Origin: Escherichia phage St-1
Length of the DNA stretch: 6,094 nucleotides
Sequence record: GQ149088
Strand: one strand, 5' to 3'
Below the pieces are notes generated by a model. The model was given only the letters and a program-made list of their open reading frames with translations, searched no databases and was not told the DNA's origin. Position 1 is the stretch's first letter; each line of letters begins with the position of its first letter. The position numbers and the translations under genes were made by a program. This document shows positions 1 through 6,093 of the stretch, piece after piece.

Positions 1-64
1 TGTTGACATTCCCTGAGCCCTTATGAGACTCTTGCTTCAACGAAATGAAGTAGGAGTCTTTTTT

Positions 65-349
65 ATGAAGCCAGCTCACCGCCTTTATCATTCTGTGCTT
101 GGTTCTTGGTTGTTTAAGTGCCCTGTTTATATCCGTTATGAGTACCTTCATCATGGTCGTCTTATCAAGGTTCGCGCCGTTCGTGACCTTTCCCCGCGTC
201 AGCAGTTGATTGCCAATCCTAAAAATTGTTTGACGTCGTTATTGCCGAGATTGACGTTACTCACCTTTCTGTCACTTGGTATGATTTTGAGGCTGAAGAG
301 TATGCCGAGTGTGATTCCGGCACTATGGAACTTCTTCTTTCTCAGGTGA
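65..349 (+). CDS. Hypothetical basic protein, spacer ORF 1; only the N-terminal part (about 65-226) looks coding
   Basis: ATG at 65 preceded by AGGAG (52-56) with 8-nt spacing. From 65 to about 226 roughly 54% of codons end in T (manual count; CGT/CTT/GTT-rich like the known genes). The ORF track starts this frame at 23, but codons 23-64 lack that bias. After about 227 the bias in this frame falls to about 22% although the frame stays open to TGA 347-349. Product begins MKPAHRLYHSVLGSWLFKCPVYIRYEYLHHGRLIKVRAVRDL. No homolog recalled. Confidence 0.35.
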   Translation: MKPAHRLYHSVLGSWLFKCPVYIRYEYLHHGRLIKVRAVRDLSPRQQLIANPKNCLTSLLPRLTLLTFLSLGMILRLKSMPSVIPALWNFFFLR

Positions 350-432
350 ATTCTGGTGAGGTTATTCGTTCTTCTGAAGATCTGTTTGTTGATGTTGATG
401 ATATGGATTGGCTTTATGAGATTGCGGAGTAA
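226..432 (+). CDS. Hypothetical highly acidic protein, spacer ORF 2; start uncertain (TTG 226, internal ATG 325, or reached by frameshift from ORF 1)
   Basis: Frame 1 is open from 226 to TAA 430-432 with about 59% T-ending codons (manual count). Product is Asp/Glu-rich, ending SSEDLFVDVDDMDWLYEIAE. No convincing Shine-Dalgarno before TTG 226 or ATG 325. An in-frame TAA at 220-222 lies immediately upstream. Confidence 0.35.
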   Translation: MFDVVIAEIDVTHLSVTWYDFEAEEYAECDSGTMELLLSQVNSGEVIRSSEDLFVDVDDMDWLYEIAE

Positions 433-435
433 ATT

Positions 436-525
436 ATGGAGACTGTTATCGGAAAATTTATTGCTCTGGCTGTTGTTGCTCTTATGCTGTATGGAATTTC
501 CTGTTTGATTCGGAGGTTCCCGTGA
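436..525 (+). CDS. Hypothetical 29-aa hydrophobic peptide with a single predicted transmembrane helix, spacer ORF 3
   Basis: ATG 436 lies 3 nt after the ORF 2 stop and is preceded by GGAG (426-429, 6-nt spacing). Product METVIGKFIALAVVALMLYGISCLIRRFP has a hydrophobic core and a basic C-terminus. About 48% T-ending codons. Stop TGA 523-525. Confidence 0.35.
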   Translation: METVIGKFIALAVVALMLYGISCLIRRFP

Positions 526-698
526 AATATTTTAGTTTGGTTGATGAACATTATGCTTATTGCCCTGAGACAAGGATTCTGCATATCACTCGTAGTCGTG
601 TTTCTGACCCTCGTTATGAGCGTCGCTTTCTTACTGATGAGGAGCATTTTGCGCTTTTGGATTGGTTAAAAAATCGCCCGACTTATATTAATTCTTGA
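522..698 (+). CDS. Hypothetical 58-aa protein, spacer ORF 4
   Basis: GTG 522 overlaps the ORF 3 stop as GTGA, the same arrangement as the A/C junction, and is preceded by GGAGG (512-516, 5-nt spacing). About 62% T-ending codons (manual count). Product MKYFSLVDEHYAYCPETRILHITRSRVSDPRYERRFLTDEEHFALLDWLKNRPTYINS. Stop TGA 696-698 falls inside the -35 box of the gene A promoter. Not in the supplied ORF track (below its length cutoff). Confidence 0.4.
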   Translation: MKYFSLVDEHYAYCPETRILHITRSRVSDPRYERRFLTDEEHFALLDWLKNRPTYINS

Positions 699-724
699 CA
701 GACCTTTAAAATACCCACTATATT
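695..724 (+). promoter_or_regulatory. Sigma70-type promoter for gene A (pA)
   Basis: Perfect -35 TTGACA (695-700), 18-nt spacer, -10 TATATT (719-724), immediately upstream of gene A. Positionally equivalent to phiX174 pA in the H-A intergenic region. Confidence 0.55.
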
Positions 725-754
725 GCCCTCGCAGGTTTACTACGAGGGCTTTTT
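725..754 (+). terminator. Intrinsic-terminator-like hairpin (T_H equivalent), also the 5-prime leader structure of the A mRNA
   Basis: GCCCTCG (725-731) pairs with CGAGGGC (743-749), a 7-bp GC-rich stem with an 11-nt loop, followed by TTTTT (750-754). The 3-prime arm contains the likely gene A Shine-Dalgarno GAGGG (745-749). phiX174 has an analogous hairpin plus T-run just before the A start. Confidence 0.5.
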
Positions 755-3065: not shown

Positions 3066-4361
3066 ATGTCTAATGTACAAACTTCCGCTGAACGTGAAAT
3101 TGTTGACCTTTCTCATCTTGCCTTTGACTGTGGCATGATTGGTCGTTTGAAAACTGTTTCATGGACTCCTGTTATTGCTGGCGATTCCTTTGAGCTTGAT
3201 GCTGTTGGCGCTTTGCGTCTTTCTCCTCTGCGTCGTGGTTTAGCTATTGACTCTAAGGTTGATTTTTTCACTTTCTATATTCCGCATCGCCATGTTTATG
3301 GTGACCAGTGGATTCAATTTATGCGTGATGGTGTTGATGCCGCACCACTCCCTTCCGTTACTACTACTCAGTATCCGGATGACGCTGGTTATGTTGGTAC
3401 TATTGTTCCTAAGAGCAACCGTATTCCTAAGTTTTTGCATCAGTCTTATCTGAATATTTATAATAACTATTTCCGTGCGCCGTGGATGCCTGAGCGTACT
3501 GAAGCTAATCCTTCAAATTTAGACCGTGATGATTCTCGCTATGGATTCCGTTGCTGCCATCTTAAAACTATTTGGTCTGCTCCTCTTCCTCCGGAAACTA
3601 AGCTCGCTGAGCAAATGGGCATTGAAAGCAATTCCATTGATATTATGGGTTTGCAGGCCGCTTATGCGCAGCTTCATACTGAGCAGGAGCGTACTTATTT
3701 CATGCAGCGTTATCGTGATGTTATCTCCAGCTTTGGCGGTTCAACCTCCTATGATGCCGATAACCGACCGTTGCTTGTTATGCACACCGATTTCTGGGCT
3801 TCCGGTTACGACGTTGACGGTACCGACCAATCTTCCCTCGGACAGTTTTCGGGTCGAGTCCAACAGACGTTTAAACACTCAGTGCCTCGATTCTTCGTGC
3901 CGGAGCATGGTGTCATGATGACTTTGATGCTGGTTCGCTTCCCGCCTATCAGTCCTTTGGAGCATCATTATCTTGTTGGTCGTAATAATTTGACTTATAC
4001 CGACCTTGCGGGTGACCCGGCTTTGATTGGTAATTTGCCGCCACGTGAGATTTCTTATCAGGATCTTTTCCGTGATGGTCGTCCGGGCATTAAGATTAAG
4101 GTTGCCGAGTCTATCTGGTATCGTACTCATCCGGATTATGTTAACTACAAGTATCAGTTACTTGAAGGTTTTCCGTTCCTTGATGATGCGCCCGGTACGA
4201 CTAGTGGTGATGACCTTCAGAAGGCTATTCTCATTGACCATAATGACTATAATGCCTGTTTCCAGTCTCAGCAGTTGCTTCAGTGGAATAATCAGGCTCG
4301 TTATAATGTCAATGTTTATCGTCATATTCCTACTGTTCGTGATTCTATTATGACCTCTTGA
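3066..4361 (+). CDS. F: Major capsid protein F
   Basis: 431 aa, alignable along its whole length to phiX174 F by recall (MSNVQTSAER, ALRLSPLRRGLAIDS, YGFRCCHLK, SIDIMGLQAAYA, QFSGRVQQT.KHSVPRFFVPEHG, TRDSIMTS). AAGGA lies 7 nt upstream. Confidence 0.97.
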   Translation: MSNVQTSAEREIVDLSHLAFDCGMIGRLKTVSWTPVIAGDSFELDAVGALRLSPLRRGLAIDSKVDFFTFYIPHRHVYGDQWIQFMRDGVDAAPLPSVTTTQYPDDAGYVGTIVPKSNRIPKFLHQSYLNIYNNYFRAPWMPERTEANPSNLDRDDSRYGFRCCHLKTIWSAPLPPETKLAEQMGIESNSIDIMGLQAAYAQLHTEQERTYFMQRYRDVISSFGGSTSYDADNRPLLVMHTDFWASGYDVDGTDQSSLGQFSGRVQQTFKHSVPRFFVPEHGVMMTLMLVRFPPISPLEHHYLVGRNNLTYTDLAGDPALIGNLPPREISYQDLFRDGRPGIKIKVAESIWYRTHPDYVNYKYQLLEGFPFLDDAPGTTSGDDLQKAILIDHNDYNACFQSQQLLQWNNQARYNVNVYRHIPTVRDSIMTS

Positions 4362-4394: not shown

Positions 4395-4958
4395 ATGTAT
4401 CAAAATTTTGTTACTAAGCACGATACCGCCATTCAGACATCCCGTTTTTCTGTTACTGGTAGTATCACTCCTGTTGCGCCTACTGGTAATATCCCTGTTA
4501 TCAATGCTGGTAATATTACTGCTGAGCATGCTGTTGTTAATCTTTATGCTAATTTGACCGCTGGCACTTCTTCTGATGGTTCTTTTATTGTTGCTATGAA
4601 GGTTGACACCTCTCCTTCTGACCCTAACTGCGTTATCTCTGCTGGTGTTAACCTTAGCTTTGCTGGTACCTCATACCCGATTGTTGGTATTGTTCGTTTT
4701 GAGTCTGCTTTTGACCAGCCCACTTCTATTGCTGGTAGTCAGATTGAGCATTACCCAATTGAAATGTCTGTAGGTTCTGGTGGTGTTTGTTCTGCTCGCG
4801 ATTGCGCTACTGTTGATATTCATCCTCGCACTTTTGGCAATAATGTTTTTGTTGGTGTGATTTGTTCTAGTGCTAAATGGACCTCCGGTCGTGTGCTTGG
4901 TACCATCGCTACGACTCAGGTTATTCGTGAGTATCAGGTCCTTCAGCCGCTTAAATAA
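4395..4958 (+). CDS. G: Major spike protein G
   Basis: 187 aa with phiX174 G-like motifs (RFESA/RFESS, DC.T.D..PRT.GNNV.VG, VI.E...LQPLK C-terminus). AAGGA lies 6 nt upstream. Confidence 0.95.
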
Positions 4959-5041
4959 AAGGCCGCCGCACTCCCGGTTATGTGTCTGCCCAGTGTAGGG
5001 CGGACCGAGCCGTACGGAGATACCCGATAAACTAGGAACGT

Positions 5042-5068
5042 GGAAGGCGTTAGCCGCCTTCCCTCCTG
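5042..5068 (+). promoter_or_regulatory. Candidate complementary (-) strand origin element: hairpin plus adjacent CTG primase start site
   Basis: GGAAGGCG (5042-5049) pairs with CGCCTTCC (5055-5062), a perfect 8-bp stem with loop TTAGC, followed by CTG at 5066-5068, within a 136-nt GC-rich G-H intergenic region. DnaG-dependent origins of G4-type phages are hairpins with a CTG initiation site. Confidence 0.4.
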
Positions 5069-5094
5069 CTAAGCCCAAAAAAGGAGCTTACAAT

Positions 5095-6093
5095 ATGCTT
5101 GGAAGTATCATTGGAGGTATTGGCTCATCGCTGCTCGGAGGACTTGCTTCCGGCGGTATCTCCAGTCTCCTTAATAAAATGTTTAGTAAAATGCCAGAAC
5201 ACGCCGCCTCTTCTGCTGGCCTTACTAATGGTCAAGGAACTATTGGTATGGATACTGACGCTGGCATTCAGTCTGCTATTCAGGGCTCTAATGTTCCTCC
5301 TGCTGGTCAATTGCCTGCCTCTAATACCTCTGGTGTTATGGCTGATGCTGGTAATATGATTCGTAATGCTGGCAGAGCTTTGCTTGACGGTACGATTCAG
5401 GCCGGTTCTGACAAGGTTAAAGAGGCTCTTATTGATAAGTTGGTTGGAGGTAATGATGCTAAAGACCGAGGAAAGGCAACCCGTGATTACTTGGCAGCGG
5501 CTTTCCCTGAGCTCAACCCATGGGAACGTGCTGGAGCTGATGCTTCCACTGCCGGGTTAGAGTCTTCCGCTCAGAATCAACAAAAAGAGATGCTTAAAAT
5601 GCAACTGGATAACCAGAAGGATATTGCCAAGATGCAGATGAATAACAATTTGCAGATTGCTGGCATTCAGTCCGCTACATCTCGCCAGAATACGAAGGAT
5701 TCTGTTTATGCCCAGAATGAGATGCTTCAGTATAATCAACGTGAGTCGCAGGCACGCGTTGCGTCCATCCTCGCCAACACTGACCTTACGACTAAGCAGG
5801 CCACCCATGAAATTATGAGGATGGCTCTTACCCGCGCTCAGGAGACTGGTCAGCATTTGACTAACTCTCAGATTATGGCTTTGGAGAAAAAGGTTTATGC
5901 AGAAATTGGCAAAATTCATCAAGATACTCAAAATTCTCGCTATGGTAGCTCTCAAGTTACTGCCGCAGCGAAAGACGTTACGAATATGATTACTGACGCC
6001 TCTTCAGGCTTTGCTGATTGGGCCTCTCAGCAGTGGAATTCATTCTTTAAGGATGGTAAGTCTGATGGTATTCCTCTCAATACCAGAAAATAA
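5095..6093 (+). CDS. H: Minor spike / DNA pilot protein H
   Basis: 332 aa with a Gly-rich N-terminus (GGIGSSLLGG) and long stretches matching phiX174 H by recall (AGI.SAIQGSNVP, TRDYLAAAFPELN.WERAGADAS, LDNQK.IA.MQ, IAGIQSATSRQNTKD.VYAQNEML, NSRYGSS). AGGAG lies 8 nt upstream. Stop TAA 6091-6093. Confidence 0.95.
   Translation: MLGSIIGGIGSSLLGGLASGGISSLLNKMFSKMPEHAASSAGLTNGQGTIGMDTDAGIQSAIQGSNVPPAGQLPASNTSGVMADAGNMIRNAGRALLDGTIQAGSDKVKEALIDKLVGGNDAKDRGKATRDYLAAAFPELNPWERAGADASTAGLESSAQNQQKEMLKMQLDNQKDIAKMQMNNNLQIAGIQSATSRQNTKDSVYAQNEMLQYNQRESQARVASILANTDLTTKQATHEIMRMALTRAQETGQHLTNSQIMALEKKVYAEIGKIHQDTQNSRYGSSQVTAAAKDVTNMITDASSGFADWASQQWNSFFKDGKSDGIPLNTRK

Follow-up and report, generated by a model that had tools for sequence, protein, structure and literature searches.

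The phages related to phiX174 are usually treated as having a closed set of 11 genes, and in phiX174 and G4 genes H and A are separated by only 63 and 58 nucleotides (nt), respectively, which hold the gene A promoter (pA) and the terminator TH. The phiX174 module after gene H consists of TTGACA, 17 nt, TTTCAT, GCCTCCAAATCTTGGAGGC, six Ts and the ATG of gene A, and that of G4 of TTGACT, 18 nt, TAATAT, GCCTCCCATCAAACGGAGGC, four Ts, a C and the ATG. The phiX174 transcription map describes a "promoter-terminator overlap" at pA-TH, where TH stops ~70% of incoming transcription (bioRxiv 10.1101/2020.03.05.979765), and according to the phiX174 record, transcription from pA begins at 3962, within the hairpin's 5' arm. 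For the alpha3/WA13 clade, extra conserved frames were described by Rokyta et al. (2006) and are counted as five in the passages of two later papers that cite them (PMC2935103, Wichman and Brown; PMC3324380). Here, we analyzed 6,094 nt of DNA from Escherichia phage St-1 (GQ149088; this whole stretch is called the window below) and compared its H-A region with those of related phages. As judged by sequence comparison, the 58-codon open reading frame (ORF) that precedes gene A, ORF58, is a protein-coding gene under strong purifying selection. It is very likely a real gene and the last cistron of a block, ORF122-ORF29-ORF58, that lies between gene H and pA in alpha3-like microviruses.

The ORF list of the window gives the gene order of a phiX174-like microvirus, with A at 758-2242, F at 3066-4361, G at 4395-4958, and H at 5095-6093. 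It contains 60 ORFs of at least 30 amino acids (aa), among which the length of ORF58 alone is unremarkable; ORF29, with 29 codons, falls below this threshold of 30 aa and is therefore unlisted. The first 760 bases of the window share 81-93% identity with alpha3, NC3, Lilleven, WA13, WA45, ID21, ID32, ID62, NC28, NC29, NC35, and phiK. The positions of published St-1 mutations, 807 in gene A and 5540 in gene H, agree exactly with the numbering used here. The H-A region was aligned first with that of 14 GenBank relatives, from which the variable-site counts were taken, and then with 7 further relatives from metagenomes and IMG/VR. Parsimony changes were counted on a neighbour-joining tree of 20 genomes. 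The gene and its ribosome-binding site are as follows.

522-698, plus strand: ORF58, a 58-aa protein-coding gene with a GTG start and a TGA stop, predicted to form a small β-sheet followed by a C-terminal helix.
512-516, plus strand: GGAGG, the Shine-Dalgarno sequence of ORF58, within the 3' end of ORF29 and 5 nt before the GTG.

The frame of ORF58 is intact in all 21 genomes compared, and its protein is nearly invariant. In its own frame the pooled pairwise ratio of nonsynonymous to synonymous substitution (dN/dS) is 0.079, compared with 1.01 and 1.89 in the other two; for gene A, the value over its first 32 codons is 0.113. Variable sites are distributed 12/7/30 over codon positions 1/2/3 in the 14-relative alignment, and the parsimony changes among 20 genomes are distributed 45/27/124 (p = 2e-18); within codons 2-7, all changes are synonymous. 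The start codon is ATG instead of GTG in five genomes (ID32, NC29, L028, L029, and L031). The sole insertion or deletion over the 177 nt of the gene in the 21 genomes is a 1-nt insertion in a run of As near the 3' end in contig L032, whose product is shortened to 56 aa. It is this comparative evidence, and not its length or the position of its stop codon, that raises ORF58 above chance. The initial annotation of this locus had held that a frame not preserved in related genomes would speak against the gene; the frame is kept in every relative, and what that annotation had said of the sequence itself (the GTGA overlap at the start, the GGAGG, and the TGA at 696-698 inside TTGACA) is correct throughout. 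In the old alpha3 record M25640, the counterpart of the GGAGG is labelled a ribosome-binding site. The predicted tryptic peptides of the protein include ILHITR, YFSLVDEHYAYCPETR, and FLTDEEHFALLDWLK.

We considered whether ORF58 might be open by chance inside a conserved element with a non-coding role, for example as a replication origin, as a "reduction sequence" or as a structured RNA. The region is indeed labelled intergenic in most records, and in phiX174 the H-A region is involved in the "reduction effect" exerted from plasmids (PMC8310164). The clustering of changes at third codon positions, a dN/dS of 0.08 in the ORF58 frame only, and a start codon that can be GTG or ATG without loss of the frame nevertheless make such an element extremely unlikely as the explanation. 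A search of the window against Rfam, with expectation values (E) up to 1, returned no match. A complementary-strand origin in the H-A region was also rejected, the G4-type origin mapping instead to the G-H spacer at 4959-5094. This spacer aligns over its full length with the origin region of G4 (G4 positions 3884-4019), with a score of 132 compared with at most 19 elsewhere, and because of this alignment with the G4 primase origin region the predicted minus-strand origin lies here between G and H and not, as in G4, between F and G. The same spacer folds into strong hairpins (-52.5 kcal/mol).

The same codon statistics bear on the proposal that the real gene is instead the ORF in the +1 frame at 541-669 (42 aa, hydrophobic) or, in a weaker version, that both frames are coding. 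In each of the 15 genomes compared at first, that frame is open over 38-43 aa, and the five extra conserved frames of the literature, as cited in the passage of PMC2935103 concerned, exceed the three non-overlapping ones. Its dN/dS, however, is 1.0, its second codon positions are the freely varying third positions of ORF58, and the proportion of synonymous differences (pS) in ORF58 is 0.31 compared with 0.32 in the non-overlapped start of gene A, so that nothing points to a second constraint; hydrophobic open frames are, moreover, expected in a T-rich genome. We consider a gene in the +1 frame, or coding in both frames, very unlikely, and as the selected frame this ORF is rejected for its dN/dS of ~1. 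Two hydrophobic overlapping frames, 541-669 in all relatives and 138-509 in WA13, WA45, and MG945254, stay open with dN/dS ~1 and no trace of selection, and these may account for the number of extra frames given in the literature.

The start codon of ORF58, read as a coding gene in its own frame, overlaps the stop codon of the ORF that precedes it.

436-525, plus strand: ORF29, a 29-aa hydrophobic peptide of the single-pass membrane type, METVIGKFIALAVVALMLYGISCLIRRFP, whose stop, TGA, forms an overlapping GTGA with the start of ORF58.

The GTG at 522-524 overlaps the TGA at 523-525, and this 4-nt start/stop overlap, as GTGA or ATGA, is kept in 20 of the 21 genomes, which bears out the junction conservation that the initial annotation had named as a check; the exception is ID32, with a 1-nt gap. 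The junction occurs in three divergent sequence versions, each with a Shine-Dalgarno-like motif, and in the variant junctions TAGGA or TAGGAG replaces GGAGG. The conserved overlap and motif together fit translational coupling, by which ORF29 and ORF58 are probably linked. ORF29 itself is conserved in all relatives compared, and its parsimony changes by codon position are 40/3/21, a pattern that we read as the signature of a peptide selected for hydrophobicity. One European Nucleotide Archive contig of 761 nt (L035) carries an in-frame deletion of ~27 nt (window ~504-535) that joins residues 1-22 of ORF29 to ORF58 from residue 5; the fusion product has 78 aa, and the coverage of this contig is only 2.2, so it may be an artefact. 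If real, the fusion hints that the products of ORF29 and ORF58 act together at the membrane.

The start of ORF58 had been likened to the junction of genes A and C of this genome, an analogy that we find weak. A GTGA is present at the end of gene A (2239-2242), as that proposal requires, but the sequence before it, GGCGGTAAGTGA, lacks GGAGG, and the alpha3 record places the start of gene C 27 nt past the end of gene A, which corresponds to the downstream ATG at 2269 of the window with its own AGGAG at 2257-2261. Within 2239-2271 of the window, the GTGA at the end of gene A does resemble the ATGA overlap of A and C in phiX174, although alpha3 records use the downstream ATG preceded by AGGAG. In phiX174, where A ends at 136 and C starts at 133, there is, as at the ORF29/ORF58 junction, a 4-nt start/stop overlap with a Shine-Dalgarno sequence inside the upstream gene; in the present genome gene C is annotated, following alpha3, from the downstream ATG.

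At its other end, ORF58 abuts the promoter and terminator that precede gene A.

695-724, plus strand: promoter pA, with the -35 TTGACA at 695-700, an 18-nt spacer, and the -10 TATATT at 719-724.
725-754, plus strand: TH-type intrinsic terminator, with a hairpin at 725-749 (GCCCTCG..CGAGGGC, -15.8 kcal/mol) and a T-run at 750-754.

No other site in the window matches sigma-70 as well as this promoter, which agrees at 11 of 12 positions. Its -35 is invariant among the relatives except in phiK (TTGGCA) and its -10 except in ID32 (TATAGT). Promoter and terminator overlap as described for phiX174: the -10 ends at 724, the stem starts at 725, the T-run occupies 750-754, and the ATG of gene A follows at 758, with the gene A Shine-Dalgarno sequence GAGGG (744-748) within the 3' arm of the hairpin. 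Across the alpha3 clade, 94% of cells in this hairpin are paired, and two pairs have changed on both sides. The phiX174 and G4 modules match this one in their -35, a spacer of 17-18 nt, the -10, an immediate GC-rich hairpin, the T-run, the ATG of gene A, and a Shine-Dalgarno sequence in the 3' arm. They differ in what precedes them, since in phiX174 and G4 gene H ends before the -35, with its stop 9 nt and 3 nt upstream, respectively, whereas here ORF58 does so with its stop inside the hexamer. Because the same pA-TH module follows directly, ORF58 takes the position that the end of gene H holds in phiX174 and G4.

The stop codon of ORF58 constitutes bases 2-4 of the pA -35 hexamer, and TTGACA holds a TGA in one reading frame of three. 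The initial annotation had taken this placement to mean that the ORF evolved in register with pA, and a stronger form of that idea makes ORF58 mainly a cis-acting device, in which pA or the terminator is tuned by translation or transcription that runs into the -35 and the peptide is secondary. The stop lies within the -35 in 19 of the 21 genomes; upstream transcription must cross pA before it reaches the terminator; there is a net loss of transcription across pA-TH in phiX174 (bioRxiv 10.1101/2020.03.05.979765); and the lost stop of phiK would take ribosomes into the 5' arm of the hairpin. A leader-type device, on the other hand, needs no almost invariant sequence of 58 aa, and coincidence alone would place the stop in the -35 for one frame in three. 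In phiX174 and G4 this pA-TH module operates behind a gene H that stops 3-9 nt short of the -35, and in NC35 neither the -10 nor the hairpin's 5' arm is present. We therefore regard a mainly cis-acting role as very unlikely. Evolution in register with pA is not supported either: the TGA is merely part of a conserved -35, the product runs to 70 aa in phiK and stops at 56 aa in L032, and phiX174 and G4 carry the same module directly after H without such an ORF. As for the interference with pA that had been suggested for upstream transcripts, transcription entering pA is real, but it is a general, already described property of pA-TH and is not created by ORF58. What places the stop of ORF58 in the -35 is the tight packing of the gene against a pA-TH module that was already there; the overlap is a by-product of this packing without special regulatory meaning, and a stop codon inside a -35 adds no new regulatory principle.

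Two natural variants of the module were seen among the relatives. In phiK (L013, window 695-734), TTGGCA removes the ORF58 stop and the frame runs on to 70 aa, ending in the 5' arm of the hairpin, which may reflect either an error in an old sequence or natural variation that alters termination. In NC35 (L011), a viable wild isolate, a 29-nt deletion (window 702-730) removes the pA -10 and the TH 5' arm; with promoter and terminator lost together, gene A could be expressed by read-through.

Between genes H and A lie three ORFs specific to the clade, with 122, 29, and 58 codons, of which ORF58 is the last, and the other end of this block is marked by a second module.

65-432, plus strand: ORF122, the first gene of the three-ORF block, 122 aa in relatives and split here into ORFs at 65-349 and 226-432.
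3-64, plus strand: TH-like module after gene H, with TTGACA at 3-8, a 15-base-pair hairpin at 25-60 (-21.1 kcal/mol), and a T-run at 59-64.

Gene callers gave the order H-ORF122-ORF29/30-ORF58-A in every contig examined, and the record of phage Lilleven annotates all three block ORFs as hypothetical proteins, one of which (QBZ71504.1) is a direct ortholog of ORF58 with 86% identity. The block is absent from phiX174 and G4, whose H-A spacers contain no such ORF, and a phmmer search with ORF58 against all three plus-strand frames of this genome, phiX174, and G4 returned self-hits only. For ORF122, dN/dS is 0.076 in the N-terminal half and 0.33 in the C-terminal half, the predicted local distance difference test (pLDDT) score of its AlphaFold2 model is 90.7, and a word-indexed protein search found its homologs confined to microvirus contigs of ~6.1 kilobases. 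The split in this genome stems from one base (C or T) that is present in all 20 relatives and absent only here, between 228 and 229, resulting in a frameshift; either the St-1 record contains a sequencing error at this point, or the laboratory strain has truly lost the function.

The TTGACA and hairpin of the H-proximal module are conserved in the relatives, while the spacer at 9-20 is variable and the T-run is interrupted in several of them. The Shine-Dalgarno sequence of ORF122, TAGGAG (51-56), lies within the 3' arm of the hairpin, and its ATG follows at 65. This second, degenerate copy of the module, retained at 3-64 after gene H, sets the present genome apart from phiX174 and G4. Because this pA-TH-like copy follows gene H, the three-ORF block is bracketed by two related modules, an arrangement that suggests an origin of the block through duplication at, or insertion into, the pA-TH site.

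Homology and structure searches, which had been proposed as a check on ORF58, returned, apart from matches judged spurious, clade orthologs only and no fold match with E below 1. No match to ORF58 was found among Pfam, NCBIfam, and PHROG profiles with E up to 1, and scans of ORF58, ORF29, and ORF122 with Pfam, PHROGs, PADLOC, and NCBIfam gave nothing usable. A word-indexed search of 5.8 billion proteins identified 10 clusters, all of them orthologs on microvirus-sized contigs; the main cluster comprises 107 sequence variants, and among these no name other than "hypothetical protein" occurs. With HMMER, an exhaustive profile search across 1.84 billion representatives recovered the gene's own cluster only (one cluster at 50% identity) and two extra matches, which we rejected as spurious because they cover only an EEHxALLDWLKN-like helix within repeat proteins. 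Profile searches of PDB sequences gave nothing credible, alignment of ORF58 with ORF122 by hhalign gave a probability of 0.7% and no similarity, and phmmer identified no paralog among the canonical microvirus proteins. ORF58 has no homolog, domain or convincing fold match outside the alpha3-like clade.

The AlphaFold2 model of ORF58 is of moderate confidence, with a pLDDT of 76. Its resemblance to ToxR raises the question of whether ORF58 is a small DNA-binding transcription factor, akin to the winged-helix proteins OmpR and ToxR, that regulates pA or host promoters. The match comprises 46 aligned residues, under half of the 110-residue ToxR chain, and its matched part presumably corresponds to the N-terminal β-sheet of the OmpR fold and one helix. 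With 58 aa, ORF58 is too short for the recognition helix and wing of an OmpR/PhoB-type winged-helix domain, and neither a profile match to this family (Trans_reg_C) nor its complete fold was found in ORF58. A pLDDT of only 76, the lack of a Pfam match, and the lack of a Foldseek match in the PDB with E below 1 likewise speak against such kinship, and the top structural match is shared with ORF122, a protein of unrelated sequence. A transcription factor of this kind is decidedly unlikely; the resemblance in the predicted model looks like a generic sheet-plus-helix motif and not family membership, and we do not think that ORF58 is a regulator of pA.

On our reading, the mRNA of ORF58 would be either the distal part of rightward (late) transcripts or the product of a weak promoter within the H-proximal module, and ribosomes coupled from, or re-initiating after, ORF29 would translate it by way of GGAGG and GTG. 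Translation would end at the TGA that happens to sit in the pA -35. The 26 nt from this stop to the hairpin would let the hairpin form, and because it would be free to do so, upstream transcripts would terminate at 750-754. Transcripts from pA would start at ~731-733, by analogy with the phiX174 start and from the spacing; they would lack the 5' arm, therefore escape termination and expose the gene A Shine-Dalgarno sequence, which would be free only in these transcripts.

On function, it is conceivable, though not likely, that the H-A block is a self-contained, "moron-like" accessory cassette between two pA-TH-type modules, in which the ORF29 anchor and the ORF58 soluble domain are made in a fixed ratio and act, perhaps with ORF122, in superinfection exclusion, counter-defence or host-range extension. 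If true, this would add a protein family without known relatives and the first such accessory cassette in phiX174-like phages. For ORF58 itself, our best guess, of low confidence, is a non-structural accessory factor that works with the co-translated membrane peptide ORF29 in host interaction or exclusion.

Several points weigh against ORF58 as an expressed gene of such a block. Its coding status is drawn entirely from sequence comparison, and its partnership with ORF29 from the conserved overlap and one fusion contig of low coverage (2.2). The hairpin of the H-proximal module (25-60 and the six Ts) may keep most upstream transcription from reaching the block, and no good -10 was found downstream of the TTGACA at 3-8 (the best is GAGACT). 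The frameshift in ORF122 of this genome suggests that phage growth in culture may not require at least some of the block. ORF58 is also unannotated in most GenBank records of the clade, where its region is called intergenic, and the paper that described a further alpha3-like phage in 2026 (PMC13029530) lists canonical genes only and leaves ORF58 unannotated. Against these points, the dN/dS values, the conserved coupling, the structural models of confident or moderate quality, and the lack of homologs justify, in our view, annotating ORF58, ORF29, and ORF122 as genes. The alpha3 branch carries ~0.7 kilobases of extra, selectively maintained coding sequence in a region that most records label intergenic, and the ORFs of the block may explain differences of alpha3, St-1, and phiK from phiX174, for example in host range or competition.

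The nearest described counterparts of ORF58 are the extra frames reported for the alpha3/WA13 clade, which share with it the location between H and A, the restriction to this clade, and the conservation. We infer that ORF58 is one of the five frames of Rokyta et al. (2006); it is thus already known as a conserved putative ORF, usually ignored and never characterised. Among the recognised genes of phiX174-like phages, ORF58 can be compared with gene K, a small, non-essential accessory gene to which it is similar in its small size. We take gene K and ORF58 both to lie outside the essential set that defines the family. ORF29 is presumably membrane-associated, as K is (Table 1, PMC2935103). The two genes have no sequence similarity by phmmer, and they differ in their arrangement: gene K overlaps A, B, and C, while ORF58 occupies its own space.
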